Numbered from the stretch's first letter, positions 13,020 to 54,232 are shown. The stretch is 57,474 nt of DNA from Candidatus Omnitrophota bacterium (GCA_013202745.1 JABMRJ010000030.1:1-57474); one strand, 5' to 3'. The notes: generated by a model from the sequence alone, not told the origin. Numbers and translations: made by a program.

Positions 13020-13036
13020 CCTCTACTCCTGTTTAG

Positions 13037-15006: not shown

Positions 15007-15019
15007 CTGATATTCTCCA

Positions 15020-32115: not shown

Positions 32116-32835
32116 CTATAACTTCCTCTTTTTAGCCATAAATTCTGCAAATTCAAAATCCAGCTTTTCGTCTATATCAACAGATCTCTCTCTTGGCATC
32201 AAATAAGCCGCCGTCATTTTGGTTATAAGCGCATTTTCTTTAAATAGATTGTCTCTCCTTGTCGCGTATATTGCGCCGTTTGGCACCACCATTTTATTAA
32301 GATAGCGCCGAAGCGCCCTCTTCCCGTTCCATCTTCCGGGGATATAGGGTTCTGCCTTATTCCTGCCTTTGAGTGTAAACATCCATTCGGGATATTCCGT
32401 AATCTCTACAGCCGAAAAGACGGAGCCTAAATTTTTGTTTCTTAAAAGAAGCTTAATACATTCGTCTATGTCGCTTCCTTTACAAAATGGCGATGTAGGC
32501 TGCAGGGTGACGATAATATCAATCTTCTTGCCTTCCTTCTTTTCGATAAAGTAAGCTGCGTGTTGGGTAACCAGCGTGGAGGCGCAATCCCCTGAGATAT
32601 TCTCTGGCCGACTAAAAGGAACTTCCCCGCCGTATTTTAACGCAGCAGCCTTTATCTTTGGATGGTCTGTTGAGACTATCACCCTGCCCAATAGCCTGCT
32701 TTCAAGCGCTGCCTTTATCATATACGAAATAAGCGGCTTGCCGCACAGCCGTTTTATATTCTTAAGCGGCAGCCTTACGGAACCGCCTCTTGCGTGTATC
32801 ACCCCTCTGATATTAGCATACTTTGTATTCTTCAT
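32116..32835 (-). CDS. Acylneuraminate (NulO) cytidylyltransferase, NeuA/LegF-like
   Basis: ..VIHARGGSVRLPLKNIKRLCGKPLISYMIKAALES.. (CTP_transf_3 pattern). Confidence 0.8.
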   Translation of the reverse strand: MKNTKYANIRGVIHARGGSVRLPLKNIKRLCGKPLISYMIKAALESRLLGRVIVSTDHPKIKAAALKYGGEVPFSRPENISGDCASTLVTQHAAYFIEKKEGKKIDIIVTLQPTSPFCKGSDIDECIKLLLRNKNLGSVFSAVEITEYPEWMFTLKGRNKAEPYIPGRWNGKRALRRYLNKMVVPNGAIYATRRDNLFKENALITKMTAAYLMPRERSVDIDEKLDFEFAEFMAKKRKL

Positions 32836-33978
32836 TTATAATTTACCCTGAAAATTTTTTGTAGTCTCCTTATAGGCCTCCCACTGCCCTACATCCAGCC
32901 ACGATTTTTCACTTACGGGGTAGACACCGATCTTACATTTCTTTCTTTTAAGTTTTTTGATAAAGTCGGTAATGTGAAAAGTTCTGTCTCTTGGAATATA
33001 CCTTAATGTCTTCTTATCTACAAGATACATCCCTGTATTGACCAGGAAATCATATTCGGGTTTTTCCTCTATCTTTTTTAACTCCCCTCCGGAATTTATG
33101 TCTACGACTCCATAAGGGACTACAAAATGCTGCATTGAACATATTATTGTTAAGTCGTAACCATTCTTTTTATGAAAGCTATATATGTCATCATATCTGG
33201 CTTTTATAATAGTGTCGCAATTTGACAAAAAGAATGTATTCGAAATGGTCCGGGGTAAAAGTTTTAATCCCCCTACTGTTCCAAGCGCCCTATCTTTTTC
33301 GTAAATATATTTTACCTTGTATTCTGCTCCGCTATTATCAAAATACGACTTTATCATCTCGCCCTTGTAACCTATAATAAAATAGATGGCGTCTGTTATA
33401 TGCTCCCTGAAATTATCTATTATCAACTCGATGACAGGCTTATCACCGACAGGTATTAAGGCCTTCGGCAATATTTTAGTAAAAGGATCGAGCCGGCTGC
33501 CTTGGCCGCCGGCCATTACAACGAGGGGTATCTTAAGGGCCTGCGCCTTACTTGGCATGCCGGCTTCATCCTTTATCACATCGCTCCAGAAGAGAAGATT
33601 TACAATTCTTTTGTTTTCATCTACTATAGGTAAGGAATTTACACCTGCCTCCAGCATAATCTTCCTTATCCTTCTTTTGGATGTATACCTGTCAACATAG
33701 ACGGGGTTATCATTATAGATCTTATCAACCTTTGCGCCCAAATCACCGTCAGTAAGTATCCAGCGCCGTATGTCTCCGTCTGTAATAGTGCCTATGAGCT
33801 TACGTTTCTTATCGGTAAGAAAGAGTATCTTCCTGGATCCCTTATCCATATGCTTCATGGCATTCTTTATTGTATATTTGCCTGTTATAAAAAGATCTTC
33901 CAATTTTTTTGTCATATTTTCACCATTCCCTTTATTGCCAGTTTTATATTCTATGTAACCTGGTGCCTGAGACACCAC
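32836..33978 (-). CDS. CBS-domain nucleotidyltransferase (PtmE-like sugar-1-phosphate nucleotidylyltransferase)
   Basis: N-terminal tandem CBS-like region (..LIGTITDGDIRR.., ..NSLPIVDENKRIVNLL..), then ..VVMAGGQGSRLDPFTKILPKALIPVGDKPVIE.. Confidence 0.8.
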   Translation of the reverse strand: MVSQAPGYIEYKTGNKGNGENMTKKLEDLFITGKYTIKNAMKHMDKGSRKILFLTDKKRKLIGTITDGDIRRWILTDGDLGAKVDKIYNDNPVYVDRYTSKRRIRKIMLEAGVNSLPIVDENKRIVNLLFWSDVIKDEAGMPSKAQALKIPLVVMAGGQGSRLDPFTKILPKALIPVGDKPVIELIIDNFREHITDAIYFIIGYKGEMIKSYFDNSGAEYKVKYIYEKDRALGTVGGLKLLPRTISNTFFLSNCDTIIKARYDDIYSFHKKNGYDLTIICSMQHFVVPYGVVDINSGGELKKIEEKPEYDFLVNTGMYLVDKKTLRYIPRDRTFHITDFIKKLKRKKCKIGVYPVSEKSWLDVGQWEAYKETTKNFQGKL

Positions 33979-35168
33979 TTACCGTTCTCCTTCTTCCATA
34001 AATGCGGCGACCTGAATCTATCGCATAACTCAAGGAAATGCTCAGGATCCATTCCGATATATTCCATAACCTCTTTGAAATATTGTTTCGGGAATTCACC
34101 GTCGAAGCGCTTTACAAGCGCCACTCCCTCTTGGCGCGTCAGGTGCTTATTTCTTATCTCCTGAGACGCCTCATAGGTAGTCCTTCCGATCCCAAATTTT
34201 ATAAATGTTGTGTAAAAATGAAAACCGTCTATACGGTCATCGAGGCTGTTGTATTTGCTATATGTCCCCTCTGTGCGTACCGGATTGGCCTGGAACCCTG
34301 TGTGTTCGGCAGCATAATAGTATGCCTCCTGAGGCGTCCATTTGATGTAATATCCCAAATAATTGACTATAAGGTTAATCTTCTCAATTTCCTTATTGTC
34401 CATTGGCAAAAACGCGCTTAATTCATTGAGGGACAATTTATGCTTTTCGATAAGCTCGGGTATCGATACTCCTCCCATGTATACCTTTGATAAGTCCTTC
34501 ATGGCGTAATAGGACTTATCGCGCAAAGAAGTTGAGTTATCAGCTACAGGATTACCGTATTCTGCCTCATTTTCGCCGTAAAATATTAAAGGTATCCCAT
34601 ACTTTGCCGCTACCTTAGGAACAATATTCTTCTGCCCCAATATAAAGGTCTGGAAAGGATGTAAGAGGTTCTCTATGGAAAGGCGGGTAAGAAGCTTCAT
34701 GGCTTTGCCATTTGGCTTGAATGTAATATTATCGAACCCCCCTATTTCAATCCAATTGCGGAAATTCTTCCAGCCTATATCAGTATATATAACAGGAGGC
34801 CATGTCACTGTAAGCGGATGCATGCCATATTTATATTTCAATATATGGGCGGCATATGCGCTGTCCTTGCCTCCGCTTCCGGGAACGACACAATCGTAAT
34901 AGCCGTCATTCCTTCGGTGCTTATCCAGAAGCCTTAGTAGCTCCTCTTCTCTTTGTTTCCAATCTATGCCCTCTTTCACATCTGCATAACGGCATGCATC
35001 ACAGATACCTTCTTCGTCAATATGCATACTCCTGTGCTTATGGTCCTGTGAATGTTTGAATTCATGAGTAGATGTCGGACGCTGATTCGACATCACACAC
35101 CGCTTGCAGAATATAACCTTTTCAGGCAGTCCGTATCGCGCTTCCAGGATCTTCTCTGTATCTATCAC
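33951..35168 (-). CDS. N-acetyl sugar amidotransferase (WbuX/WbpG/PseA family)
   Basis: ..FCKRCVMSNQRPT.. zinc-ribbon-like start, and PP-loop ..VVPGSGGKDSAYAAHILK... It sits immediately downstream of HisH/HisF paralogs. Confidence 0.8.
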   Translation of the reverse strand: MIDTEKILEARYGLPEKVIFCKRCVMSNQRPTSTHEFKHSQDHKHRSMHIDEEGICDACRYADVKEGIDWKQREEELLRLLDKHRRNDGYYDCVVPGSGGKDSAYAAHILKYKYGMHPLTVTWPPVIYTDIGWKNFRNWIEIGGFDNITFKPNGKAMKLLTRLSIENLLHPFQTFILGQKNIVPKVAAKYGIPLIFYGENEAEYGNPVADNSTSLRDKSYYAMKDLSKVYMGGVSIPELIEKHKLSLNELSAFLPMDNKEIEKINLIVNYLGYYIKWTPQEAYYYAAEHTGFQANPVRTEGTYSKYNSLDDRIDGFHFYTTFIKFGIGRTTYEASQEIRNKHLTRQEGVALVKRFDGEFPKQYFKEVMEYIGMDPEHFLELCDRFRSPHLWKKENGKWCLRHQVT

Positions 35169-35850
35169 CTTTAGACCTCCTTGTACTTAATGCAAAATTC
35201 TTATAAATTTTCAAACCGCTTAAAGCGCTCCTTTCAGGGTGAAATTGGCACGCAAATATATTTTTATAACGTAGGCTTGAACAAAACCTGATATTTCCGT
35301 ATTGGGATTCTGACAGAACTATATCTTTCTCTTGGGGGTCTGCATAGAAAGAATGGACAAAATACATATATTCCCCTCCCTCCAGACCGTCAAGCAGCGT
35401 CTCGGACCACATATCGCTGTTCTCTTTATGCGCCGATTTATATATACGGTTCCATCCTATCTCCGGAACTTTTAGCCTTCCGCCCAGCTGATCAACCGGG
35501 TTGCCAAAATGCTTAACCTCTCCTTTTATGATATCCAGCCCCTCATGGCACCCGAACTCCATGCTCTTTGACATAAGCAGCTGCATACCGAGACATATAG
35601 CTAAAAAAGGCTTCTCCATGCCCGCTATTTCGCGCAAAACACTGCTTAAGCCGAGATCCCTCAATGCGTTCATTGCATCTGGGAATGCCCCGACACCCGG
35701 CAGGATCACGGCATCTGCTGAGCGGATCTTTTCTTCGGATGATGTCAGCACGCCCTTAAGCCCCACGCTCAGACAGGCATGTTTCACGCTGAATAGATTA
35801 CCCATGCCATAATCTATAATTGCAGCTATAGGGCTATCTTTATCATGCAT
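35122..35850 (-). CDS. Imidazole glycerol phosphate synthase HisH-like glutamine amidotransferase (WbuY-like)
   Basis: ..IIDYGMGNLFSV.., ..AICLGMQLL.. (nucleophile Cys), ..CQFHPERS.. Confidence 0.85.
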   Translation of the reverse strand: MHDKDSPIAAIIDYGMGNLFSVKHACLSVGLKGVLTSSEEKIRSADAVILPGVGAFPDAMNALRDLGLSSVLREIAGMEKPFLAICLGMQLLMSKSMEFGCHEGLDIIKGEVKHFGNPVDQLGGRLKVPEIGWNRIYKSAHKENSDMWSETLLDGLEGGEYMYFVHSFYADPQEKDIVLSESQYGNIRFCSSLRYKNIFACQFHPERSALSGLKIYKNFALSTRRSKGDRYREDPGSAIRTA

Positions 35851-36715
35851 AAAGCTTCTCCGCTTTGTAACCGCGGCACTCTATACCGCTTCTCATAAGG
35901 AATTCCTTTATATCCTGAAGCGACGTATGGTTTATCATTGAAAATGAACGTTTATTTCTCATATATTCTATATTGCCTTCACCGGAGAAATCACCCTTGT
36001 TTTCATGCTTCATAACAATGTCGTAATGGAGTATTGACGCAACGCTTACGGCGTCTGCCCTTCCTTGTGTAATTACGTCTTTAATATCTTCTTTATTGCC
36101 GGCGCCGCCGCATGCTATAACCGGGATGGAAACGGATTCTGCAATCTTTCTTGTAAGTTCTAAGTCAAGCCCCTTTCCCGTTCCTTCTCTATCAATAGAT
36201 GTAATAACTATCTCGCCTGCGCCCAATTCCGCTGCTCTTACCGCCCACTCCATGGCATCTACCCCGGTGCTCTCCCTGCCGTTATCGGTATAGGCCTCGT
36301 AACCGCCATCCGGCTTTCTTATCGCTTCAATAGAAATAACTATAGTGGATGAGCCAAAACGCTTTGATGCCCTGCGTATCAATTCGGGATCTTGCATAGC
36401 TGCGGTATTTATGGAGACCTTATCAGCCCCGGCCCTAAGAACGGCCTTTATATCATCTATATTTCTCAATCCACCCCCTACGGTAAGAGGAATGAAAATC
36501 TCTTTCGCGGTCCGCTCTACTATGCCCAGAAGGTTGTTCCTGCCGTATAGACTCGCAACAACATCCATATAGATGAGCTCGTCTGCCCCGTTTTCGTAAT
36601 AATGCCGCGCAAAATATTCGGGCTTGCCTAAAACGCGCAGGCCTTCCATGTGGATCCCTTTTACCAGATTCGGCCCCTTTATGTCGAGCCTCGGTATAAC
36701 TCTTATATACGCCAT
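35843..36715 (-). CDS. HisF-like cyclase subunit (WbuZ-like)
   Basis: ..RVIPRLDIKG.., ..ADELIYMDV.., ..IPLTVGGGLRNIDD.., ..PVIACGGAGN.. Confidence 0.85.
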   Translation of the reverse strand: MAYIRVIPRLDIKGPNLVKGIHMEGLRVLGKPEYFARHYYENGADELIYMDVVASLYGRNNLLGIVERTAKEIFIPLTVGGGLRNIDDIKAVLRAGADKVSINTAAMQDPELIRRASKRFGSSTIVISIEAIRKPDGGYEAYTDNGRESTGVDAMEWAVRAAELGAGEIVITSIDREGTGKGLDLELTRKIAESVSIPVIACGGAGNKEDIKDVITQGRADAVSVASILHYDIVMKHENKGDFSGEGNIEYMRNKRSFSMINHTSLQDIKEFLMRSGIECRGYKAEKLYA

Positions 36716-37881
36716 CTTATATTGTAAAATTCCTTTTTTAACAACAGCCCCTTTACTGTCTTTATTATCTTTGCTATTCTTTTTGAAGCGCTTCCATCCC
36801 CGTATGGGCTCTTTATTCTCTTTAAGGTTTTCTGGAATTCCGGCGTATAGAGTTTTCTAATGGCCTTTTTTATATCTTCCTTACGGGGGCTGCAATCGAT
36901 AATACTCTCTGTCCTGATCCTCCCCTTTTGCCTATCGCCTATATTGACCGTGCCTATCTTAAAGCTTGGGGCCTCAATGATACCGCTCGATGAGTTTCCA
37001 ACAACTGCATCGACAAACTGCATTGTTGAAAGGTACTTTCGCTGCCCCATGGAGATAAATGCCTTTGATTTATACGGCCTCTTTGCAACATACTTATCTA
37101 TCATCTTATTTATTATCCTGCCCTCTGTATCAGCGTTTGCCATCGTAAATATTATATGTGTACCTTTAAGTGAATCCAACACATTAAGCAGGTTCCCAAA
37201 CTGCTTTTTCGATGTCCCCTTTTCAAGAGTAACAGGATGGAACGTAACAAGCAGATTGCGTTTTGCAAATTTAAAACTTAATTCCTTTTCCAGATCTTTT
37301 TTGGATAAAAACTTCATCCTTTTTATACTATCCAGCCCTGTTGCCCCTACGTTAAATACCCTGTCAGGCTGCTCGCCCAGCTGTATCACTCTCTTTCTGT
37401 ATTCGTCCGTAGATGTAAAATGGAGATGGCTCATCTTTGTTATGGAATGCCTGATCGCCTCATCTATCACGCCAAAGGTCGCCTCGCCCCCGTTTATGTG
37501 TGCTATAGGTATTCTCCATATCATAGCAGCGGTTGCGGCTGAAAAGGCCTCAAACCTATCGCCCAAAATCACTACCATGTCTGGTTTTAACTTCACAAAA
37601 GCCTTACTCAATTTTAAAATAGCAGAAGAGACAGACCTATTTATGCCCACAGGCGTATCATCCTCTAGAAAAATTTTTACTTTTTCGTCTATCTTAAGCC
37701 CGTCCCTTTCGATCTCCTTATATGTTGACCCGAACTCAGGTAAAAGATGCATGGCAGAAGCTACTATCTGGAGCTTAAATGCCTTATCCTTCCTTACCTC
37801 TTCCATAAGCGGTCTTAAAAGGCCGTATTCGGCCCTTGTACCCGTAAAGACGCAGATCTTTTTCTTACTTTTTTTAGTCAT
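36703..37881 (-). CDS. UDP/GDP-N-acetylglucosamine 2-epimerase (hydrolysing), NeuC/LegG-like
   Basis: ..KKICVFTGTRAEYGLLRPLMEEV.., ..IAHINGGEATFGVIDEAIRHSITKMSHLHF.. Confidence 0.9.
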   Translation of the reverse strand: MTKKSKKKICVFTGTRAEYGLLRPLMEEVRKDKAFKLQIVASAMHLLPEFGSTYKEIERDGLKIDEKVKIFLEDDTPVGINRSVSSAILKLSKAFVKLKPDMVVILGDRFEAFSAATAAMIWRIPIAHINGGEATFGVIDEAIRHSITKMSHLHFTSTDEYRKRVIQLGEQPDRVFNVGATGLDSIKRMKFLSKKDLEKELSFKFAKRNLLVTFHPVTLEKGTSKKQFGNLLNVLDSLKGTHIIFTMANADTEGRIINKMIDKYVAKRPYKSKAFISMGQRKYLSTMQFVDAVVGNSSSGIIEAPSFKIGTVNIGDRQKGRIRTESIIDCSPRKEDIKKAIRKLYTPEFQKTLKRIKSPYGDGSASKRIAKIIKTVKGLLLKKEFYNIRWRI

Positions 37882-37883
37882 AG

Positions 37884-38555
37884 TTATTTAGACAACTCCT
37901 TTAAAACCATGAAGCTCTCTGCATATTTAAAACCAGCTGTTGCGCCCCTGAAGGTTGCGAGAGTTTTTATGTTTTTTACGCTTCTTGGAAACGGGTGTCT
38001 TCCTATCTCATTCTTAAAGATCTTCATGATCTCGATCTTTTTCGCTATAAATTCGCTTATATCCACAAAATAATTCGGCACAAATACAGAATCTTTCGTG
38101 GGAGGTGCAAATTCTGTTTCGCTTATCGTCTCCATCATCAAAACCTTGTTCAGGAATGGATAGCGGAACGTCTTTGTGCAGCTGTATGCGGCCTCGAAGA
38201 TTACTTTGTGATCACTGTGAACATCTCCGTTAAACGGCAGATAAAGTATATTCGGTTTAATGGCCTTGAATACTGTTGATATACTCTTAACCATCTCTTG
38301 CTTCGGAAACTCCTTCACCTGTGTCGTAGGAATATCAAGCATCTTAACGGCCTCAAATCCATACATGTTTGCAACAGACTTTATCTCCTTATCCCTTCTG
38401 GCTATCTCATCCTTCTTAAAGCCCTGCTCGCTTTTTATGCTCGTGGCAATAAGCCAGTATATCTTATCGCCTTTCTTTTTATGCTTTAGAAGGGAGCCTC
38501 CGCAGCCTAGGGTCTCATCATCCGGGTGGACAGCAAGGATCAGTACCTTATTCAT
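37884..38555 (-). CDS. PIG-L/LmbE-family N-deacetylase
   Basis: ..VLILAVHPDDETLGCGGSLLKH.. and ..GDVHSDHKV... Clear paralog of the 47844-48542 product. Confidence 0.85.
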   Translation of the reverse strand: MNKVLILAVHPDDETLGCGGSLLKHKKKGDKIYWLIATSIKSEQGFKKDEIARRDKEIKSVANMYGFEAVKMLDIPTTQVKEFPKQEMVKSISTVFKAIKPNILYLPFNGDVHSDHKVIFEAAYSCTKTFRYPFLNKVLMMETISETEFAPPTKDSVFVPNYFVDISEFIAKKIEIMKIFKNEIGRHPFPRSVKNIKTLATFRGATAGFKYAESFMVLKELSK

Positions 38556-39436
38556 TATAGACGGTCTCCTTTTCTTGGTAATTTTGCAAAATCATGTTCT
38601 GTAAGTAAGATTGCATTGTCGCCGCATTTAACCAATATATTGCCTTCGGCCGCATCGAGAACTTTGCCGCAATCAATCTCTTTTGAATTTACCATTACCT
38701 CCTTTGCAGCCCAGACCTTTATTCCTTTACCTTTATATGAAACATGCGCACCTACATAAGGCCTTGTGAGGGCCCTTATAAGGTTATACACTGTCCTGCT
38801 GTCAGCCCTGAAGTCGATCTCGCCATCCTTCTCTACTCTCTTCCTCCAATAACCCGATCTTGCAGGATCCTGCGGAATCCTATTAAATGTTCCGTCTTTC
38901 AGCTTCGGCAGGAAATCCTCTATCTGCTCCAGGGCTCTCTTTGTAACCCTATCACAAAGAGACCTCGCATTATCACTATAATCTATTAAAACCTCTGCCT
39001 GGCTCAATATATCACCATCGTCAAGGCCTTTCTTAATAAAGAAGAAGGTCGAAGCGGTCTTATCCAATCCTTTCGCGAGGGCCCATATAAGCGGGTGCCT
39101 CCCTCTGTTTTCCGGCAGCCTGGCAGGATGGTATCCTATTACACCCATAGGGGCGATTTGCAATACTTCCTCTTTTAACAGATGTGAAAACCCGAAACAG
39201 AACATAATATCAGGCGCTATCCGCCTCATCCAATCTATGTTTTCTTTTGAATTGATATCTTCTACATGCTTATAAGGAATATCCTTCTCGGTACAGACTG
39301 GAGCAAGGTCGGCAAAATCTGCATTTATGCCTGCGTCTTTTTTAGTAACAACACCTGCTATATCTGCATTCAGCTTTATCAGCTTTAAAAGTGCCTTTTT
39401 GCTGAACTCAACAGAACCTATAAATAGAATCCTCAT
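38555..39436 (-). CDS. Formyltransferase-fold protein with C-terminal Fmt-like domain; catalytic Asn position replaced
   Basis: ..MGVIGYHPARLPENRGRHPLIWAL..FFFIKKGLDDGDIL... His and Asp are kept. The residue two before His is Gly rather than Asn. Confidence 0.7.
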   Translation of the reverse strand: MRILFIGSVEFSKKALLKLIKLNADIAGVVTKKDAGINADFADLAPVCTEKDIPYKHVEDINSKENIDWMRRIAPDIMFCFGFSHLLKEEVLQIAPMGVIGYHPARLPENRGRHPLIWALAKGLDKTASTFFFIKKGLDDGDILSQAEVLIDYSDNARSLCDRVTKRALEQIEDFLPKLKDGTFNRIPQDPARSGYWRKRVEKDGEIDFRADSRTVYNLIRALTRPYVGAHVSYKGKGIKVWAAKEVMVNSKEIDCGKVLDAAEGNILVKCGDNAILLTEHDFAKLPRKGDRL

Positions 39437-40434
39437 AGCTCTATTTGCTCATCCTTCTTAAAGTCTTTCTTTGCCGCTCTACCTATTACATCGGGCCACC
39501 TTAGGGGGCTTATACCTGTACCTGGTCTCTTTGCCCCAATATTCCTGTCGCTAAACAATTCCCCCTCCTTAATATCGCGCTCGGCAACTATGCTCTTGCG
39601 TACTACAGGGATATTCCTAAGCTCGGAAGCGCTTGGCCTTTTTATGCCACTGCCAAGCCCTTTTTCCACGGCCCTAATCGCAGAGACCATCTCTTTTAGT
39701 TCATTCGGCTCCAGAGAGGCGCGATGGTCCGGGCCGGCCATCCCTCTATCAAGGGTAAAGTGTTTCTCGATAACAGTTGCCCCTAATGCTGCTGCAGCAA
39801 TCGGTAAGGCAATTCCCGGCGTATGGTCTGAATAACCAACCTCTACATTAAGTTTATCTCTTATAGTAATCATTGCCGATAGATTGGCATCTTCAAATGG
39901 TGTCGGATATTCTGTATTACAGTGCAGGACGGTTATATCATCCTTATGCAATCCTGCCCCCTTTAATATATCAAGTGCCTTTGCCACCTCTCTTAACTCC
40001 GACATACCGGTAGATAGTATAACCTTCTTATTCAAGGATCCTATTCTTTTAAGAAAAGGGAAATTCGTTATCTCGCCGGATGGTATTTTGTATATCTTCA
40101 AGCCCAGCTCTTCGAGCCGCTCTACGCTCTCTATGTCAAATGGGCTCGACAAGAATAATATGCCCTTCTTGGTGCAATAATTCATAAGTTCCCTATGGGC
40201 ATCTATATCCAATTCCAGCCTCTTTAACATATCGAGGTGTGACTCCCTGCCGTTTGTGCTTCTTTTTTGATATTCCGCCTTAGAGGCAAAACGGCTTACT
40301 ATCCTTTCTGCTCTGAAGGTTTGAAACTTTACGGCGTCTGCCCCGGCATCATAAGCAGCATTTACCATCCGCATGGCTATTCCCAGATCTCCGTTATGAT
40401 TAACGCCTGCCTCTGCTATTATAAAGATACTCAT
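39433..40434 (-). CDS. N-acetylneuraminate-type (NulO) synthase, NeuB/LegI-like, with C-terminal SAF domain
   Basis: ..MSIFIIAEAGVNHNGDLGIAMRMVNAAYDAGADAVKFQTF.. and a C-terminal ..RKSIVAERDIKEGELFSDRNIGAKRPG.. Confidence 0.9.
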   Translation of the reverse strand: MSIFIIAEAGVNHNGDLGIAMRMVNAAYDAGADAVKFQTFRAERIVSRFASKAEYQKRSTNGRESHLDMLKRLELDIDAHRELMNYCTKKGILFLSSPFDIESVERLEELGLKIYKIPSGEITNFPFLKRIGSLNKKVILSTGMSELREVAKALDILKGAGLHKDDITVLHCNTEYPTPFEDANLSAMITIRDKLNVEVGYSDHTPGIALPIAAAALGATVIEKHFTLDRGMAGPDHRASLEPNELKEMVSAIRAVEKGLGSGIKRPSASELRNIPVVRKSIVAERDIKEGELFSDRNIGAKRPGTGISPLRWPDVIGRAAKKDFKKDEQIEL

Positions 40435-40437
40435 ACA

Positions 40438-42864
40438 TTACTTTCCTTTAAAGATTAGATAGTTCCCCATCACAAGACAATCCAGGCCGCATGAAAAGAA
40501 TGTCCGCACTGCATCCTGGGGTGAGCAGACTATCGGTTCGCCATTTATATTAAAAGAGGTATTCAAGACCACAGGGATACCCATCACCCTGTTAAATTCC
40601 GATATCAATCCGTAGAAACTCGGATTCATCTCTTCCGAAACGGTCTGGAGCCTTCCCGTCCCGTCAATGTGTACAACCGCCGGAATAAGCCCTTTCTTAT
40701 CTTTTTTGACCTTGCAGACCTTCTCCATAAAAGGCACGCTGTTGCCTCCGGATGTCTCAAAATAATCTTTTGTATACTTCTCCAATACCGAAGGTGCAAA
40801 AGGACGGAAGGTCTCTCTATACTTAACCGCCTTGTTTACGATATCTTTAGTCTTTACCTGGCGCGGATCTGCCAGGATGGAACGGTTACCAAGCGCCCTT
40901 TGGCCAAACTCCATACTCCCCTGGAACCAGCCTATAAGCATGCCTTCTGAGATAAGTCTTGCCGTTATCTTCTCGATATCCTTATGGAAGGTATATTTAA
41001 GCTTATGTTTATCGAGGACCTCCTTAATCTCTTTGTTAGAAAATTCCGGACCCCAATAATTGTGCTGCTGGAAATGGCGTTTTTTATGGCCGAGTATGCA
41101 ATTGTATAAATAGAGCGCTCCTCCTATAGAAGTACCGCTGTCGTCTGGGCACGAAGAGATGAAGAGCTCTTTAAAGGGCGTCAAGTCCAGCAGTTTCCCG
41201 TTAAATACGGAGTTCATAGCGCATCCTCCGGAAAGAACGAGTTTGCTGCATCCGGTCGCGGCATGGAGGTGATTCAGCATATGGACGGCTATCTCTTCGA
41301 ATATTTGCTGTGCAGCAACCGCTATCTGCGTATGCCTATCACTTATCTTGCTATCCTTTTCCCTTGCCGGCCCTAAAAGTTCTATGAGCTTTTCAGTATA
41401 CATCGTATGCTGCCTGTCAAAGAGATAGAAGGTAAAATATGATAGGTCAAGCTCAAAGGTGCCGTCCTTCTTCAATGTTATGATACTCTTAAGCTTCCTA
41501 TAATATTTATTGTCTCGCTTGCCATAAGAGGCCAATGCCATGACCTTCCACTCATCGGAATCAGGCCTGAATCCCAGGTATTCGGTAATGGCCCCGTAGA
41601 ATAACCCGAGTGAATGCGGCATCATAACAGATTGAATCTTTTTTATGCTATTACCTTTCCCTTTCGCAAATAGACATGTTTCATTTTCACCCCTCCCATC
41701 CATCGTAAGTATTGCAGCCTTCTCAAATGGAGAGAGTAAAAATGCATTTGCGGTATGCGCATCATGGTGATTAATAAAAAAGAGGGAGAGATCCTTGCCA
41801 TTCAGGGAGATCTTCTGTTCTATGTGCTTAGGATCTGAGCTGTAGAACTGGTTCAAGAGACAGCTTGGTGTTGAATATAGATATTCACCGCGCCATCTAA
41901 TAGGTTTCGAATATCTCATACTTGCCGATTTTATATGTAATGCCGGATTCCACGACATGACGATGTAGTCAATGTCATTAATCGTTATCCCTGCTCTATC
42001 AAGACAATAAGCTATCGCTTTATTAGGAAATGCGTTAGACATCTTCTGTCTGTCGAATCTCTCTTCCGGAGCCGCAGCAATAATCTTACCGTCTTCTATC
42101 AGGGCCGCTGAAGAAATCCAGATATCCGGGCTTATACCGAGTATTCTCACGCCATAACCTCTTTTTTTAGAGGTTAACTGTTTCTTTCTAGTTACCCTGT
42201 TATCGGGATCATGCTCAAATCTATAACCGCTCAGATCGATATAGGCACCAGGCATATCAGGATAAGTGGATGCCTTTATCCTTTTGGCTATCTCTTTTTT
42301 TGACATCCTGGGGCTTATTTTGCATAATGCCTCTAAATCATTACGCTTATAAGGCTTTCTCTTCCACTTTTCAGTGCAATGCGGAAGTTCTTTTCTATCC
42401 AAAACAAAATTCATAACATCTAAGAATGCCGAAAACATTTCGTCGTAGCTTTTCATGCTCAGGTTATATATCGAATCGGATTCCAGCAGACGAAACCTCT
42501 TTACCGATATTATCTTGCCCGTATCAACCTTTTTGTCCATGATATGGGCTGTAACACCATAGGTCTTTTCGTTGTTGTAGACGGCAAAATTAAAACAACC
42601 TATACCAGGATACTCCGGAGGGCCGGGATGGAAATTGATATTCCAGAGCTTTGTCCTCTTTAGAATCTTACTGGGAATTATCCATGGTGATAGATAGGAT
42701 ATTATTATATCTGGAGATTCATTATAAGGTTGCTTTGGAAAAGGATCCTTCACCCCTCCCGGATATATAGTTAATTTCTCTGAATGCCTCTTTAAGTACT
42801 CTATTACCTCTTTTACTGTATACTTTTCGGGTTTTGTGAATAATGTGACTTTCATCTTAAACAT
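40438..42864 (-). CDS. Fusion protein: N-terminal formyltransferase-fold domain plus NodU/CmcH-family carbamoyltransferase
   Basis: Residues about 1-230 contain ..LWNINFHPGPPEYPGIG..GVTAHIMDKKVDTGKII... The remaining roughly 570 aa contain ..ILGISPDIWISSAALIEDGKIIAAAPEERFDRQK.., ..FFINHHDAHTANAF.., ..LNTSFNINGEPIV.. (carbamoyltransferase N and C domains). Confidence 0.8.
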   Translation of the reverse strand: MFKMKVTLFTKPEKYTVKEVIEYLKRHSEKLTIYPGGVKDPFPKQPYNESPDIIISYLSPWIIPSKILKRTKLWNINFHPGPPEYPGIGCFNFAVYNNEKTYGVTAHIMDKKVDTGKIISVKRFRLLESDSIYNLSMKSYDEMFSAFLDVMNFVLDRKELPHCTEKWKRKPYKRNDLEALCKISPRMSKKEIAKRIKASTYPDMPGAYIDLSGYRFEHDPDNRVTRKKQLTSKKRGYGVRILGISPDIWISSAALIEDGKIIAAAPEERFDRQKMSNAFPNKAIAYCLDRAGITINDIDYIVMSWNPALHIKSASMRYSKPIRWRGEYLYSTPSCLLNQFYSSDPKHIEQKISLNGKDLSLFFINHHDAHTANAFLLSPFEKAAILTMDGRGENETCLFAKGKGNSIKKIQSVMMPHSLGLFYGAITEYLGFRPDSDEWKVMALASYGKRDNKYYRKLKSIITLKKDGTFELDLSYFTFYLFDRQHTMYTEKLIELLGPAREKDSKISDRHTQIAVAAQQIFEEIAVHMLNHLHAATGCSKLVLSGGCAMNSVFNGKLLDLTPFKELFISSCPDDSGTSIGGALYLYNCILGHKKRHFQQHNYWGPEFSNKEIKEVLDKHKLKYTFHKDIEKITARLISEGMLIGWFQGSMEFGQRALGNRSILADPRQVKTKDIVNKAVKYRETFRPFAPSVLEKYTKDYFETSGGNSVPFMEKVCKVKKDKKGLIPAVVHIDGTGRLQTVSEEMNPSFYGLISEFNRVMGIPVVLNTSFNINGEPIVCSPQDAVRTFFSCGLDCLVMGNYLIFKGK

Positions 42865-43949
42865 CCTTTCAAGATTTTACAAGCAGAATATATATCATCT
42901 TCTGAGTTTAATGTTGAACATGGCAGGCACAGCCCTCTTTCGTAAATTCTATATGAGTTTTTATAATCATGGTTTTTGTACCTTTTGTATGGCGGAAATT
43001 CGACTATCGGCATAAAGATTCTTCTCGTAGTAACACCCTTATTTTTAAGGTTGCTCTGGAGTAAAGGTATATCGATATCTTTAAGCAATATGCATACAAG
43101 CCAGTAAGAGCTATTTGCGTTAGTGAGTGTTTCCTGGAAAGATATCTTCTTTATACTTTTTAATTCATTCCGGTATATCTCATTAAATCTTTCTTTCTTC
43201 TTCAGAAATCCTTCCAGTCTCTTTAGCTGGGCCAATCCGAGCGCTGCTTCTATATTTGTCATCCTGTCATTAAAACCTATCTCAGGGTGGTAGGACTCAT
43301 TCGATCTATCCTTTGCCTGATTGGCCAAAAACTTTATGTGCTCTAATTTCTTCGGGCTATTCCCAACAATCATCCCGCCGCCGCCGGTGGTAATAACCTT
43401 ATTTCCATTAAAACTGAAACACCCGAAGTCTCCCAATGTCCCTGTATAATTACCATTATATTTTGCGCCCAGGCTCTCTGCGGCATCTTCAATCACATAT
43501 ATATTATGTTTCTTTGCAATCCGCAGGATCTGATCCATGTTGCAGGGGTTTCCATAAAGGTGGACCGCTATTATCACCTTTGTCTTGTCTGTTATGGCCT
43601 TTTCTACGGCAGCTGCATCTATATTCCATGTCACGGGGTCGATATCTACAAATACGGGCTTTGCATTGACATATAAGACCGGGTTTATACTGGCGATAAA
43701 TGTCAGGGCAGGCACGATTACTTCATCCCCTTTACCTACACCCAGCTCGTGTAAAACCATATGTATAGCCGTGGTTCCGCTTTGCGTGGAGACGGCCTTC
43801 TTTACCCCGAGGAGTTTGGCAAATTCCGCTTCAAATTCTGCTACAAACGGCCCGACGCTCGAAACATAGCCGCTATCTATAGCGTTATTCAGATATTTTT
43901 TTTCCAACTCCCCTACATTCGGCGCGTCCAGAAAGATTTTTTTATACAT
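42852..43949 (-). CDS. DegT/DnrJ/EryC1-family PLP aminotransferase (LegC-like)
   Basis: ..SGTTAIHMVL.., ..VIEDAAESLGA.., ..FSFNGNKVITTGGGGMI.. (PLP Lys). Confidence 0.85.
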   Translation of the reverse strand: MYKKIFLDAPNVGELEKKYLNNAIDSGYVSSVGPFVAEFEAEFAKLLGVKKAVSTQSGTTAIHMVLHELGVGKGDEVIVPALTFIASINPVLYVNAKPVFVDIDPVTWNIDAAAVEKAITDKTKVIIAVHLYGNPCNMDQILRIAKKHNIYVIEDAAESLGAKYNGNYTGTLGDFGCFSFNGNKVITTGGGGMIVGNSPKKLEHIKFLANQAKDRSNESYHPEIGFNDRMTNIEAALGLAQLKRLEGFLKKKERFNEIYRNELKSIKKISFQETLTNANSSYWLVCILLKDIDIPLLQSNLKNKGVTTRRIFMPIVEFPPYKRYKNHDYKNSYRIYERGLCLPCSTLNSEDDIYSACKILKGCLR

Positions 43950-44940
43950 TGTATATACCCGGTTTATAAATTTTCATGTTGTCTTTATTCCTAAACCACT
44001 CTATAGTTTCATCTATGCCTTTGTCAAGTGAGTATCTCGGCTTCCAACCTGTCAACTCTGTAATCTTTTTGTTGCTTCCCAAAAGTTCCATTACCTCGGA
44101 CTTTTCCGGCCTTATTCTTGCATTATCACATATTATCTTTGCCCCGGGGTTTATCTTCCCTATAATCTTCTTCCCCAGCTCTCCTATTGTAACTTTTTCA
44201 CTGCTTGCAATATTGATCTCTTCGCCTATAGTATTGTCAGAACTTGCAATGGCTATGAAAGCATCGCACACATCTTTTACGAAATTAAAATCTCTGGCAG
44301 GCTCCAAATGACCAAGCTTTAACTCCCTGCCGCCGTTTAATAATTGCGTAATGATCGTAGGTATAACCGCCCTTGCAGACTGCCTGGGGCCGTAGGTATT
44401 GAACGGCCTGACTATAGTAACGGGTGCATTAAATGACCTGTAAAATGACTCTGCTATTTTATCCGCACCTATCTTTGTCGCGCTATATGGCGACTGCCCC
44501 TGCAGGGGGTGTGTCTCTTCTATGGGTATGCTTACTGCAGTACCATAGACCTCAGATGTGGAAGTCATAAACAACCTCCCTGCATTAAGGTCTATACCTG
44601 CCTGAAGTATGTTCAATGCGCCTTTTATATTCGTATCTACATAAGAATCGGGTGCATGGTAAGAGAATGGTATGCCGACAAGCGCCGCTAGATGAAAAAC
44701 TGCGTCAACGCCCTTCATGGCCTTTCTCACGCTATTTGAGTCCCGCACATCTCCGGGAAATACCTCGATTTTTTCTATTTTTTCACGGCTGAATCCATCG
44801 AGCCAGCCCCAGGAGTTAAATGAATTATAGAAAACAAATGCCCTGACCCTGCAGCCCTCATCCAGCAAGCGTTCAACGAGATGGCTTCCTATGAATCCGT
44901 CTGCGCCCGTTACAAGAACCTTCTTATTTTTTAGATTCAT
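43942..44940 (-). CDS. NAD-dependent nucleotide-sugar 4,6-dehydratase (LegB-like SDR)
   Basis: ..KVLVTGADGFIGSHLVERLL.., ..FYNSFNSWGWLD.., catalytic ..SPYSATKIGADK.. Confidence 0.8.
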   Translation of the reverse strand: MNLKNKKVLVTGADGFIGSHLVERLLDEGCRVRAFVFYNSFNSWGWLDGFSREKIEKIEVFPGDVRDSNSVRKAMKGVDAVFHLAALVGIPFSYHAPDSYVDTNIKGALNILQAGIDLNAGRLFMTSTSEVYGTAVSIPIEETHPLQGQSPYSATKIGADKIAESFYRSFNAPVTIVRPFNTYGPRQSARAVIPTIITQLLNGGRELKLGHLEPARDFNFVKDVCDAFIAIASSDNTIGEEINIASSEKVTIGELGKKIIGKINPGAKIICDNARIRPEKSEVMELLGSNKKITELTGWKPRYSLDKGIDETIEWFRNKDNMKIYKPGIYNV

Positions 44941-46610
44941 TTATCTTTTCTCCAATCTTTCTCTCTTTTTGCCTTTTCAGGAAAAAGGTATGTTTCCATA
45001 AATTCGTTATTAGGATGCTGTGGGTTCTTTGACAAATAACTTAAAAGCTGCCCTTCATCAAAGATTACCCGGTTCTGACCATTAAATTCCATATTAACAA
45101 AATCACATCTCTTTTTTAAAAGCTCCATCGGTTCAGGAAAAGGCCTAATGGGGCTGCCTGCCATACAAAAAGCGATTACCAGCTTATTCGTACATAGTGT
45201 TATTGGAAAGGCTGTGGTCTTTACATGTGTAAAAATAAAGGCGTCGGCAAGCGACAGGTAATCTTCGAGATAACCCTTCAATACCTTAACTCTGCTTTTA
45301 AAAATACTCTCGACTTCCGGTAAATTTTCAGGATGCGCCTTATAAAATACCTCATAACCGGCATCTTTGAGAAGATCTATGATGCGCAGTTCAAGATCTA
45401 ACTGCATAAATCCTAAAGCGGACGGAGTCAGATGTTTTCTTAAATGTGTATAAAGATAACCCACCATCATTACCTTCTTAACCTCCTTCGGTAATTTTTT
45501 CTTGTTATACATCTTGTACCATTTATAGTATTCATTGCTGTCAGCGGATTTGATTACGGTATTAACGGGCCTAAGAGGTTTATGGCTCTTTTTAATCTTC
45601 TCAAAGAGTTCAATGCTCTTGGTAGTATATGTAATAAATTCATCCGAAAGCGCAAATTCTGAAAATGCCATTGTCGGAGTATCAAATAGACCTATGTGGC
45701 CGCCATGGCTAAAACTTGTAATCCTCCCTCCTTGTCGGCGAACTGCTATAGAGAGCGCTCTAATAAACGGACTATTTAAATTAGCTGTCAATAAATGAAT
45801 TTTTTTTCTTCTCATTTTGATTTCATCTTTTAATGCTCCGAGTATTCTGGCAGAAAATATTAATTCGTTTTGCATCATTTGTCTTAGATGATCAATATGC
45901 ACATTAAAGATCTCAATCTCATTTTTGACGGCTATCGATCTCAATTCATCGGCAAAGGCCCTCGATATCTCTTTTATGGCATTCTCTTTCTTATTGGGTA
46001 TCATATAAGTGAATCTTTTCGGCAACCAATCGGACGGTGATGTAAAATAGGTATAATATGGCGCCTTTTTAATATATTCACCCGTAAGAGAGCTTACTGA
46101 ACCGCAGAATAATGCGTTCTCTTCATTATCTTTTGGTTTAAAGCATTTAAGAGGATTTGAGTTATATATTACATTCTTGGCAATCTTTTTTATAGTGATC
46201 TCTGTATTCTTGCAAAAGGTGTAATTACAAAGATCACACATAGGCCTACCTATGTTCGGTATGGGATTTTCCGCGGGATAATGGTCTGTTGTGAGCTTCT
46301 TATACCAGGGCGTATGATCTGTATATAAAATACGCATTCCCAGCCTACCTATCTTCTGTATTACCTTCAAGGCATGTAAAAAATGGAGGTATTCAGTAAC
46401 CAGGTACCGCTGAATAAGAAATATATCGCCTATCTCTTCCGGCTGGGTGGTTATATATCTCCTTAAAGAGGCGCTGATATCCTCATATAACGCAAAGAAT
46501 TCGCTGTCGGATACAGGCCAAAAGAAATCATTTCGCCATTTCTCTATTCCGTATTCTTTAATCTTTATTATATCAACCGGGAAATATCTATCTTTGCAGC
46601 CCTGTGCCAT
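44937..46610 (-). CDS. Hypothetical protein; C-terminal GT-B-like half with KxHP-type motif (candidate CMP-NulO transferase)
   Basis: 557 aa, soluble. ..KIHLLTANLNSPFIRALSIAVRRQGGRITSF.. and ..GYEVFYKAHPENLPEV..ADAFIFTHVKTTAFPITLCTNKLVIAF... Distant by-eye similarity to the 29761-31314 product. Confidence 0.35.
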   Translation of the reverse strand: MAQGCKDRYFPVDIIKIKEYGIEKWRNDFFWPVSDSEFFALYEDISASLRRYITTQPEEIGDIFLIQRYLVTEYLHFLHALKVIQKIGRLGMRILYTDHTPWYKKLTTDHYPAENPIPNIGRPMCDLCNYTFCKNTEITIKKIAKNVIYNSNPLKCFKPKDNEENALFCGSVSSLTGEYIKKAPYYTYFTSPSDWLPKRFTYMIPNKKENAIKEISRAFADELRSIAVKNEIEIFNVHIDHLRQMMQNELIFSARILGALKDEIKMRRKKIHLLTANLNSPFIRALSIAVRRQGGRITSFSHGGHIGLFDTPTMAFSEFALSDEFITYTTKSIELFEKIKKSHKPLRPVNTVIKSADSNEYYKWYKMYNKKKLPKEVKKVMMVGYLYTHLRKHLTPSALGFMQLDLELRIIDLLKDAGYEVFYKAHPENLPEVESIFKSRVKVLKGYLEDYLSLADAFIFTHVKTTAFPITLCTNKLVIAFCMAGSPIRPFPEPMELLKKRCDFVNMEFNGQNRVIFDEGQLLSYLSKNPQHPNNEFMETYLFPEKAKREKDWRKDK

Positions 46611-47184
46611 AAATCCTTATCCTTTTCCTCTGCTTAAGAAACTCTTGTTGAGAAATGCCCATATATATTTTATCCATATACCTGCCTTCAAAATTATAAA
46701 GATCCTTTATTCTCCCTTCAACCTTAAACCCGACCTTTTTGTACAGCTTTATCGCCGCTACATGCTTTTGGCAAACACCGAGAAAAACCTTATTCAAATT
46801 CAATTTCGTAAATGAATATTCCAGAAGAAGGCGGCAGGCCTCCTGTCCGTAGCCCATGCACCAGCATCTTTTCTCACCTATCATGATTCCAAGGTCACCA
46901 TATCGATGTGTCCAATTTATCTTACCCAACTTAACATTACCTATATGAATATTTTCCTTTTTCGTAACTATAGCAAACATAATATTATCTTTAGATTTTT
47001 GCATATTCTGAAAATATTTTTGTAAACTAGTATATGTGGTTGGAGAACCCTTGTTTATCATGTATTTAACAACGCTGTTGTCATTGAGCCATGACAGGTA
47101 CCTTCTGTTTATATCCTTTTTTACAATAGGCCTAAGATATATCTTATCACCTGCAAGAAGAGGTCCTTTATGCCTTTTTCTCAT
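46588..47184 (-). CDS. GNAT N-acetyltransferase, RimJ/RimL/PseH-like
   Basis: ..IYLRPIVKKDINRRYLSWLNDNSVVKYM.. and ..RCWCMGYGQEACRLLLEYSF.. Confidence 0.75.
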   Translation of the reverse strand: MRKRHKGPLLAGDKIYLRPIVKKDINRRYLSWLNDNSVVKYMINKGSPTTYTSLQKYFQNMQKSKDNIMFAIVTKKENIHIGNVKLGKINWTHRYGDLGIMIGEKRCWCMGYGQEACRLLLEYSFTKLNLNKVFLGVCQKHVAAIKLYKKVGFKVEGRIKDLYNFEGRYMDKIYMGISQQEFLKQRKRIRIYGTGLQR

Positions 47185-47187
47185 AAA

Positions 47188-47865
47188 CTATTTTCCACTA
47201 CACTTTTCTTTACGAATCTTCAGGGTGTACTTATATCCCTTGTGCCTAAAGAAAGCCGGGAACCTCTTATTATTCACAATTCTTAATAAGTTAAATTGCT
47301 CTTTTAGCGTCTTATCCATATCCAATGCACTATCAACCGGCTTCCTCCTTTTGTAAAAAGTAGACTTACCCTTCTGTTTTTCTGGTCTCAATCTTTTATA
47401 TTCAGTTAAAAATCTTAAACAGAGGTCTAGCGTTTTTCTCGCCTGCTTTTCTCTTATCTCACTATTCAGTTCGTGGCCTTTCATTTTTATATAATCTTTT
47501 AAGTACAAATCTCCATCGTCAATTTTTTCATTTGCATCGAATAAAACTATCGGCACTACATTCTTGCCTTCCAGTACCTGCCAGAATAATGGTGCCCACC
47601 CTTTACCTTTCGGGAGATCACTCTCGTGTACCACTAAATTATGTTTATGCTTCCGCAAATATCCTGCTCCTATCAGGCGCGTATAATTTAATATAAATAC
47701 TATTTTGTAGTTCTCATCGATCTTTCTGTGATCATAGAATAGCCCGGGCCTTAATCTCTTATTCTTAAGTGTTGCAACGAATTGCCTTGCATAAGGGAGA
47801 AACCAGCTCCCTTTTGAGGTCAATACGGCTACACTCTTAGAATTCATCTTATCACCCTGACGCAT
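47188..47865 (-). CDS. Formyltransferase-fold protein, divergent (catalytic Asn position replaced)
   Basis: ..HNLVVHESDLPKGKGWAPLFWQVLEG..VLFDANEKIDDGDLY... His and Asp are kept. The residue two before His is Val, and RG is replaced by KG. Confidence 0.55.
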   Translation of the reverse strand: MRQGDKMNSKSVAVLTSKGSWFLPYARQFVATLKNKRLRPGLFYDHRKIDENYKIVFILNYTRLIGAGYLRKHKHNLVVHESDLPKGKGWAPLFWQVLEGKNVVPIVLFDANEKIDDGDLYLKDYIKMKGHELNSEIREKQARKTLDLCLRFLTEYKRLRPEKQKGKSTFYKRRKPVDSALDMDKTLKEQFNLLRIVNNKRFPAFFRHKGYKYTLKIRKEKCSGK

Positions 47866-48542
47866 TCAAATGCTTCCGCGTGGCTCAGGCCGACTACGCT
47901 GCCCCGTAGTTTTGCAAGATTTCTGACAGATTTATCCGATCGAGGATGCGGGAAGTTCCTATATTCTGTCTTATAAATCTTGAGGGCCTTGATCTTTCTG
48001 TCTATAGTCTCAGATATATCGATAAAGACATTGGGATTAAAGCGATTGGGGTAATTCCACTCTGTTGCAGAGGGGGTTTCAAAAGAGTAGATCTCCTTGG
48101 TCTCTTCCCCTCTCATCGGCCTGCAGGCTGTCAAGACGGCCTTAAAGACTATCCTATGGTCTACATTCAGATCATTCCAGTGGTGAGTATAGATTATGCT
48201 GGGATTTATCTTATCCTTAACCTTCTCAATAACCTTTATAATATCCAACAAGGGGGTTTTATCAAATCTATTATCCGGGAACTGATATATAAAAAGCTTT
48301 TTTACGCCAATAGCGTCATTGGCCTTATGGGCTTCGTTCTGCAATCTCTTTATATCATCCATCCGGGCCTTCTTTCTACGTTTCGTATCTCTTGAGGTTA
48401 TCCCCTCTCCCAAGATAAGGGTGGCCGCGTTAAACCCTTCTTTAATTAAGCGCGCAAGTGTCCCACCGCAGCCCAGGATCTCATCATCAGGGTGTGCGGC
48501 AACGACTAAGATATCCCTTCTCTTCTCCCGCTTTATCATCAC
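47844..48542 (-). CDS. PIG-L/LmbE-family N-deacetylase
   Basis: ..ILVVAAHPDDEILGCGGTLARL.. and ..DLNVDHRIV.. Confidence 0.85.
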   Translation of the reverse strand: MMIKREKRRDILVVAAHPDDEILGCGGTLARLIKEGFNAATLILGEGITSRDTKRRKKARMDDIKRLQNEAHKANDAIGVKKLFIYQFPDNRFDKTPLLDIIKVIEKVKDKINPSIIYTHHWNDLNVDHRIVFKAVLTACRPMRGEETKEIYSFETPSATEWNYPNRFNPNVFIDISETIDRKIKALKIYKTEYRNFPHPRSDKSVRNLAKLRGSVVGLSHAEAFECVRVIR

Positions 48543-54226: not shown

Positions 54227-54232
54227 ATAGAG

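Follow-up and report, generated by a model that had tools for sequence, protein, structure and literature searches.

The stretch of DNA considered here, contig C10 (57,474 nucleotides) of the Candidatus Omnitrophota bacterium assembly GCA_013202745.1 (JABMRJ010000030.1; 1.67 Mb in 195 contigs, 91.5% complete), is called the window below and constitutes a single glycan locus. All of its 56 open reading frames (ORFs) of at least 150 amino acids (aa) lie on the minus strand, as do all window features described here. It combines a pseudaminic acid (Pse)-type cluster (51161-57474) and a legionaminic acid (Leg)-type operon, that is, genes for two types of nonulosonic acid (NulO), with accessory genes that Pfam scans assign to glycosyltransferases, radical S-adenosylmethionine enzymes, methyltransferases, an ABC exporter and a Wzy_C protein. 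The Leg-type operon is the subject of this work: the acetyltransferase LegH is absent from it, and the place that legH holds in related operons is taken by a gene whose product starts with a formyltransferase domain and continues as a carbamoyltransferase.

The operon is read in the order LegB, LegC, an 808-aa protein, NeuB/LegI, a 293-aa formyltransferase-like protein (Fmt293), PIG-L and NeuC/LegG, and neighbouring genes overlap or are at most 3 nucleotides (nt) apart, which argues that they form one operon. The LegB-type nucleoside diphosphate (NDP)-GlcNAc 4,6-dehydratase (332 aa, 43942-44940; TIGR04180, 480.9 bits, cut-off 475), the LegI/NeuB NulO synthase (333 aa, 39433-40434; TIGR03569, 498.7 bits, cut-off 399.65) and the hydrolysing NDP-sugar 2-epimerase LegG/NeuC (392 aa, 36703-37881; TIGR03568, 502.7 bits, cut-off 235.9) all exceed the cut-offs of their TIGRFAM models. 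The LegC-type C4 aminotransferase (365 aa, 42852-43949; PF01041, E = 5.5e-111) scores slightly short of the cut-off of TIGR04181 (415.8 against 420 bits), by far its best family. ArnA-like Fmt293 (38555-39436; PF00551, 78.5 bits, with PF02911) and the PIG-L/LmbE-type de-N-acetylase (223 aa, 37884-38555; PF02585, 78.8 bits) complete the seven genes, whose content and order had been proposed in the initial annotation and are upheld by the Pfam and TIGRFAM models. On the 3′ side of LegG follow an acetamidino trio (33951-36715), namely a HisF/WbuZ-like protein (35843-36715; WbuZ model TIGR03572, 271.8 bits, under the cut-off of 299.7), HisH (35122-35850; TIGR01855, 195.5 bits) and the amidotransferase WbuX (33951-35168; TIGR03573, 358.2 bits, above the cut-off of 203.2), then a PtmE-like CBS-nucleotidyltransferase (32836-33978; PF00571 and PF00483) and the NulO cytidylyltransferase LegF (32116-32835; PF02348; 142.1 bits with the PseF model, under its cut-off). 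This gene content is best explained by a guanosine diphosphate (GDP)-type legionaminic acid operon, epimers such as 4eLeg and 8eLeg being indistinguishable by sequence. The cytidine monophosphate (CMP)-Leg pathway of Campylobacter jejuni likewise comprises LegB, LegC, LegG, LegI and the cytidylyltransferase LegF, with PtmE serving the GDP-linked precursor, and the counterparts of these in the window are gathered in one operon; however, it includes LegH where the window has the formyltransferase-carbamoyltransferase protein, and, unlike it, the window operon also contains the PIG-L/Fmt-like cassette and the WbuX/HisH/HisF trio.

The lack of any hexapeptide-repeat protein in the 57 kb, previously noted from the sequence, is confirmed by Pfam scans, which found no Hexapep match in any of the 56 window ORFs, and by searching the entire genome in all six frames with TIGR03570 and PF00132, which gave no left-handed beta-helix (LbH) match on contig C10. 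A hidden Markov model built from 12 LegH proteins of related loci, with which generic LbH proteins score 48-71 bits, retrieved only four LbH proteins across the genome, none of them of the PglD/LegH type: an LpxD-like protein (356 aa, contig C122), an LpxA-like protein (274 aa, C194), GlmU (445 aa, C34) and CysE (C88). The last of these was considered as a hidden LegH and ruled out, being a serine acetyltransferase encoded next to cysS. LegH is thus absent as far as the assembly reaches.

In relatives, the gene between legC and legI encodes a protein of about 215 aa with PglD_N and Hexapep domains; this is the case in loci from Nitrospirota (L011), Planctomycetota (L012), a metagenome (L099) and seven Omnitrophota genomes (L114-L116, L118-L121). 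The same position is taken in the window by the gene for the 808-aa protein (40438-42864; Formyl_trans_N, Carbam_trans_N and Carbam_trans_C). Its formyltransferase domain (residues 1-223, 42196-42864), a member of a family here called Fmt219, has as its best solved match over about 220 residues the GDP-perosamine N-formyltransferase WbkC (5vyt, E = 1.1e-13), with other sugar formyltransferases at E = 1e-6 or worse and PseJ at 3e-4, and it matches PF00551 with 42.9 bits (cut-off 26.1). The NINFHPG and DTG motifs are retained, and the Asn-x-His...Asp triad (N77, H79 and D114) is intact and invariant across the family alignment (A2).

The domain belongs to a large family, since 1157 proteins were found with it at E < 1e-5, nearly all of them stand-alone proteins of about 219 aa; these stand-alone homologues are 50-65% identical to it, and Omnitrophota and Brocadia are among their sources. 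The arrangement LegB-LegC-Fmt219-NeuB recurs in all eight other loci that were read (L122-L129), where the Fmt219 gene overlaps or abuts legC and where no LbH match occurs within 10 kb. Among 400 sampled genomes of the phylum, six have Fmt219 and eight have LegH with Fmt293, and the two sets do not overlap. The closest cluster, L122, runs LegB, LegC, Fmt219, NeuB, Fmt293, PIG-L, NeuC, WbuZ, HisH, WbuX, PtmE and LegF at 53-71% identity to the window (71% for LegB), with one additional methyltransferase and without a carbamoyltransferase; the window is therefore an operon of the L122 type that gained a carbamoyltransferase gene. In a locus from Brocadia (L123), the slot holds Fmt219, and a methyltransferase and PIG-L are present without Fmt293; PIG-L is not present in five of the eight loci (L124-L128). 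This approximately 219-aa WbkC-like family is a recurrent occupant of the LegH slot, which is reported here for the first time. The earlier suggestion that formyltransferase-fold proteins, in the plural, occupy that slot accordingly stands for the N-terminal domain of the 808-aa protein and fails for Fmt293, which together with PIG-L accompanies LegH in 10 of 12 other loci lacking a carbamoyltransferase; this coexistence rules out Fmt293 as the replacement of LegH.

Several known systems offer partial precedents. PseJ is an established case of a formyltransferase that takes the place of PseH in the Pse5Ac7Fo pathway (PMC11040635; PDB 6ci2/6ci4); like the window domain it is a small formyltransferase found instead of an N4-acetyltransferase, and it yields an N7-formyl sugar. 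PseJ differs in serving a Pse pathway with substrates of the UDP-L-AltNAc type, and the similarity is weak when compared with that to WbkC, the window protein belonging to a distinct family. WbkC of Brucella (PDB 5vyr-5vyu) has the Asn-His-Asp triad in common with the window domain and acts on a GDP-linked 4-amino-4,6-dideoxyhexose, as would be expected of the LegC product; however, it is an unfused enzyme of another pathway, and its sugar bears a hydroxyl instead of an acetamido group at C2. Candidatus Kuenenia stuttgartiensis is reported to have a cluster of the Leg type, with no mention of LegH, that encodes both a deacetylase and a formyltransferase, and to contain O-methylated CMP-NulOs in which one amine is formylated and one is free (SugarBase preprint, 10.64898/2026.04.20.719630). 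When the Brocadia locus L123 is used as a proxy for the Kuenenia formyltransferase, its combination of Fmt219, PIG-L and a methyltransferase is a good match to that product, whose positions are unassigned in the preprint; in contrast to the window, neither a carbamoyltransferase nor an Asn-less Fmt partner nor an amidotransferase trio is reported for the Kuenenia cluster. Formylated Leg sugars, the anammox one among them, are likely to derive from the ~219-aa family. Halorubrum sp. PV6 also makes a formylated Leg and has a predicted formyltransferase gene in its leg cluster, akin to the window, but it has LegH and carries the formyl group on N5, whereas the window is without LegH and N7 is the predicted first site (PMC6137143). 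The exchange represented by PseJ, the Kuenenia Leg cluster and 5-N-formyl-Leg in Halorubrum are therefore already known; what is new is the separation of the role of Fmt219 from that of the Asn-less Fmt/PIG-L cassette.

The substrates, positions and products that we infer for the window are as follows. LegB and LegC would form GDP-4-amino-4,6-dideoxy-GlcNAc, the 4-amino group of which would be formylated by the formyltransferase domain with N10-formyl-tetrahydrofolate, and LegG and LegI would then lead to a 5-acetamido-7-formamido legionaminic-type acid. A product formylated and not acetylated at N7, as had been predicted for this locus, is the best reading and a well-supported one, because LegH is absent, a WbkC-like domain with an intact triad sits at its position, and the family recurs between legC and legI without LegH. 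We consider it probable that the operon represents a recurrent Leg subtype in which the ~219-aa WbkC-like N-formyltransferase replaces LegH, and that here it also has a fused carbamoyltransferase and the separate PIG-L/Fmt293 cassette. A number of points weigh against this. The activity of the Fmt219 family and the structure of the NulO of this organism are predictions; about 8.5% of the genome is missing from the assembly; a PseH-like GNAT encoded two genes upstream of legB could acetylate N4; acceptance of a 4-formamido substrate by LegG and LegI is presumed; the formyl-bearing nitrogen is unspecified in the Kuenenia preprint (10.64898/2026.04.20.719630); the activity of Fmt293 is uncertain in view of its missing catalytic Asn; and the fusion of a formyltransferase to a carbamoyltransferase would be odd if both targeted the same amine.

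The anatomy of this fusion bears on its age. The carbamoyltransferase domain of the NodU/TobZ type (residues 239-808, 40438-42150; PF02543, 193.4 bits; PF16861, 227.1 bits) has homologues of 63-70% identity, each of them an unfused protein of about 570 aa starting with MRILGIS, and the window protein is the only one among the 120 carbamoyltransferase matches listed that also carries PF00551. Stand-alone Fmt219 proteins end in ...FEYNPDR; the window protein reads ...FEHDPDNR, followed by a 15-codon linker, VTRKKQLTSKKRGYG (42151-42195), and then by V-RILGIS. The junction reads, at the DNA level, 'aac agg gta act aga aag aaa cag tta acc tct aaa aaa aga ggt tat ggc gtg', and with one G removed the codon following AGG becomes TAA, at the usual terminus of the family. 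The linker, a former intergenic spacer, contains AAGAGG 7 nt ahead of a GTG, which in the alignment corresponds to the Met of unfused carbamoyltransferases. A carbamoyltransferase gene has apparently been inserted ahead of legI, and the stop codon of the formyltransferase gene lost through one extra G. Since a single G removes the stop and the linker retains the ribosome-binding site and GTG start, the fusion appears to be a very recent read-through of the spacer, and the carbamoyltransferase may still be translated separately from the GTG. Gene calls place the 808-aa ORF on three contigs, of which the one read is recorded in two samples; this argues against a random error. This one-base-old fusion to a carbamoyltransferase is likewise new.

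With regard to the function of the second domain, its best solved match is PDB 7xb6 (E = 1.9e-98), with TobZ, NovN and GdmN at about 1e-81. TobZ, NovN, GdmN and NodU share the Carbam_trans_N and Carbam_trans_C architecture (E from 1e-81 to 1e-98) but carbamoylate hydroxyls of antibiotics or Nod factors, whereas the window enzyme is fused into a NulO operon. NeuB also occurs in 25 of the 80 carbamoyltransferase loci fetched, mostly as a gene neighbour, in Omnitrophota, Pelagibacteraceae, Balneolaceae, Rhodospirillales, Acidobacteriota, Elusimicrobiota, Bacteroidota and Thermodesulfobacteriota, among other lineages. This wide association of the carbamoyltransferase clade with NulO clusters is new, and the literature searched for carbamoylated NulOs yielded nothing relevant and no described product. 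In the window, the domain would add a carbamoyl group to a NulO hydroxyl or to an amine left free, both of which are candidate acceptors. More generally, it is quite possible, if short of probable, that this enzyme and its relatives at no fewer than 25 NeuB loci carbamoylate a NulO, giving a 7-ureido product where legC occurs without LegH, and that the slot is a general site for exchanges at N7.

Among the alternatives to N7 formylation in the window, the one that survives best, though we regard it as doubtful, is that the carbamoyltransferase is the working substitute for LegH and carbamoylates N4 to give 7-ureido Leg, or that both enzymes act and a mixture of 7-formamido and 7-ureido products results. 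Stand-alone homologues (43-67% identical) do occur in Leg-type clusters, often exactly as LegC-carbamoyltransferase-NeuB (between legC and legI in L013, L015, L055 and L058). LegH is found in 2 of the 25 loci with carbamoyltransferase and NeuB as against 10 of 13 NeuB loci without carbamoyltransferase (Fisher p = 3e-5), and, when only legC-bearing loci are counted, in 1 of 10 against 7 of 10 (p = 0.02), p-values that overstate the association because the loci are related and the two sets are anchored on different genes. In the three loci with neither LegH nor carbamoyltransferase, the slot is taken by a different acyl-transfer enzyme, namely a 295-aa Fmt (L010), an Fmt (L100) or an ATP-grasp ligase (L117); this pattern suggests alternatives for the same step, with the carbamoyltransferase as an N4 enzyme. 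Carbamoylation before condensation would also have to hit a nitrogen, because O3, the sole free hydroxyl of the NDP-hexose, becomes the ring oxygen of the NulO. Against N-carbamoylation, however, the closest solved relatives (7xb6, TobZ, NovN and GdmN) are all O-carbamoyltransferases, a DegT aminotransferase is missing within 10 kb from about half of the NulO loci with carbamoyltransferase, those of SAR11 included, and the slot of the window is already held by a seemingly competent formyltransferase. The carbamoyltransferase was dropped as the replacement of LegH in the window, since the family of the N-terminal domain fills the slot alone and L122 is the same operon without any carbamoyltransferase.

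The SAR11 loci (L023, L025, L042, L056 and L092) deserve separate mention. They read LegB-NeuC-NeuB-carbamoyltransferase-PtmE-cytidylyltransferase, followed by a class-III aminotransferase and a short-chain dehydrogenase/reductase (SDR), and contain neither a DegT aminotransferase nor LegH within 10 kb. The aminotransferase and SDR pair is presumably a precursor supply of the PtmF/PtmA type. In L025, a Polysacc_deac_1 deacetylase and a GNAT lie immediately upstream of legB. The SAR11 gene content suggests a NulO that is carbamoylated and would lack a 7-amino group.

A further alternative concerns acetylation by enzymes of another fold. The argument that the lack of LbH proteins means the lack of acetylation, made when the locus was first annotated, overlooked that the window encodes three acyltransferases of the GNAT type, among them the PseH-like protein of 198 aa at 46588-47184 (PF13302, 79.1 bits; TIGR03585, 60.6 bits). 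We take SpsD of Bacillus subtilis to be a GNAT as well. Leg production in B. subtilis requires this putative acetyltransferase, which is not called LegH (PMC7439481), and therefore 'no LbH' alone does not mean 'no acetylation'. If a GNAT of the window (46588-47184 or 28159-28773) acetylated N4, Leg5Ac7Ac would be made first, and the Fmt-fold proteins would edit it later or serve the Pse pathway. The match to the PseH model, the location in the same gene string as legB and the homologues immediately upstream of legB in two of the SAR11 loci (L025 and L042) favour this reading. It is nevertheless unlikely, as the score remains under the model's cut-off of 93.1, a 557-aa gene intervenes between the GNAT and legB, the GNAT is grouped with a second PIG-L/Fmt-like pair by a Pse cluster that lacks PseH, acetylation of GDP-GlcN at N2 is equally possible, a role in the Pse pathway is conceivable too, and a homologue (BLAST, E <= 1e-6) was found in none of the eight Fmt219 loci, so that the subtype runs without this GNAT.

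It is quite unlikely that N7 is instead left as a free amine and that N5, once PIG-L has taken off its acetyl, is the site formylated by the formyltransferase domain or Fmt293. The 5-formamido-7-amino-Leg thus formed would be one reading of the anammox product, with its one free and one formylated amine at unassigned positions (10.64898/2026.04.20.719630), and Halorubrum does contain 5-N-formyl-legionaminic acid (PMC6137143). Yet in the five Fmt219 loci without PIG-L, N4 would be the sole free amine, the Fmt219 gene overlaps or abuts legC, and a GDP-4-amino sugar is the substrate suggested by the resemblance to WbkC. Finally, it is very improbable that the pathway is the canonical one, with a LegH encoded in sequence missing from the assembly: the fragmented, incomplete assembly, with glycan genes scattered over small contigs (C128, C35, C36, C21 and C87), leaves room for it, but the position held by LegH in relatives is already filled, none of the eight Fmt219-type loci has LegH within 10 kb, and one of them (L124) comes from a single-contig 1.43-Mb Omnitrophota genome, read at the locus only.

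Distinct from formylation at N7 is the editing predicted for N5. Fmt293 resembles the formyltransferase domain of ArnA (E = 5e-33), but it and all close family members aligned have Gly at the position of the catalytic Asn (GVIGYHPA), with His and Asp retained. The family is large and well conserved, with 55-63% identity across phyla, Campylobacter concisus included (a metagenome scan with Fmt293 returned five loci), and a PIG-L gene adjoins every orthologue of at least 39% identity that was read. The HPDD and HxxH motifs of PIG-L/LmbE proteins bind the metal. Both have counterparts in the window enzyme, HPDDE at residues 10-14 and HSDH at 113-116. In the Fmt219 subtype the sole acetamido group would be that at N5, derived from GlcNAc, and the substrate of PIG-L should therefore be the N5 acetyl. 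PIG-L would remove it and Fmt293 would formylate the freed amine, so that the two genes most likely represent a separate cassette exchanging the N5 acetyl for a formyl group; the WbuX/HisH/HisF trio would give an N5-acetamidino form as an alternative. A second, tightly packed cassette (46588-48542) is located between the Pse and Leg clusters and consists of PIG-L (47844-48542), an Asn-less Fmt-like protein of 225 aa (47188-47865, LVVHES) and the PseH-like GNAT, so that both Asn-less Fmt-fold proteins of the window adjoin a PIG-L gene.

Related arrangements are seen elsewhere. In Campylobacter concisus (L010, GCA_977870645.1), a PseB/PglF-like dehydratase and DegT are followed by the 295-aa Fmt, a canonical one with an INCH motif, in the acetyltransferase slot, then by NeuB, NeuC and an Asn-less Fmt293 orthologue (57% identical) with PIG-L; there is no LbH gene nearby, and the prediction for this human-associated Campylobacter is a NulO with two formyl groups. 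In the window, a third PIG-L protein (303 aa) is encoded at 27264-29786 with a GNAT of 204 aa and, of 338 aa, a FemAB-like protein as neighbours, a group that may be a further deacetylate-and-reacylate module, perhaps dependent on aminoacyl-tRNA. The Pse-type cluster encodes PseB, PseC, an aldo-keto reductase, PseF, a PseG-like protein and PseI; PseH is missing and an ATP-grasp ligase (52179-53258) is in its position, in parallel with the ATP-grasp enzyme in the LegH slot of L117. Three ORFs have no Pfam match (44937-46610, 557 aa; 21517-22623, 368 aa; 928-2109, 393 aa), and the first, which lies directly upstream of legB with a 4-nt overlap, has no NCBIfam match either. The genome contains four NeuB homologues, with a third NulO fragment on C128 (DegT, NeuB and then an Fmt of about 310 aa). 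No fewer than four other paralogues of the carbamoyltransferase, with 32-42% identity, are spread over small contigs; the contigs concerned in these observations are C128, C35, C36, C21, C87 and C19.

The history of the slot was approached through a LegI tree of 41 rows, in which resolution is poor within the clade of the window. This clade of 20 rows (support 96/85) has intermixed slot types, with seven Fmt219, seven LegH, three carbamoyltransferase, one ATP-grasp and one 295-aa Fmt, so that exchanges at the slot are frequent around a constant set of core enzymes; over the whole tree the LegH label requires 8 changes, compared with 9.1 when labels are shuffled. The ATP-grasp locus L117 (Omnitrophota), which has a methyltransferase, a PHP-domain protein, a PylC-like ATP-grasp ligase and an SDR epimerase in the LegH slot (11398-15266), is sister to a LegH-type locus (97/93). 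One position of the Leg operon would thus behave as a swappable cassette, the core enzymes (LegI 55-65% identical) being combined with a transferase of the acetyl, formyl, carbamoyl or ATP-grasp type. If this is true, the slot would set the N7 substituent as acetyl, formyl, carbamoyl or an ATP-grasp-linked acyl group, and its occupant would provide a genomic rule for predicting that substituent. NulOs occur on flagella, S-layers, capsules and lipopolysaccharide, where charge, antigenicity and the recognition by phages and lectins depend on the N-acyl groups of these sugars, and the loci described here point to undescribed carbamoylated NulOs in abundant uncultured groups, SAR11 among them.

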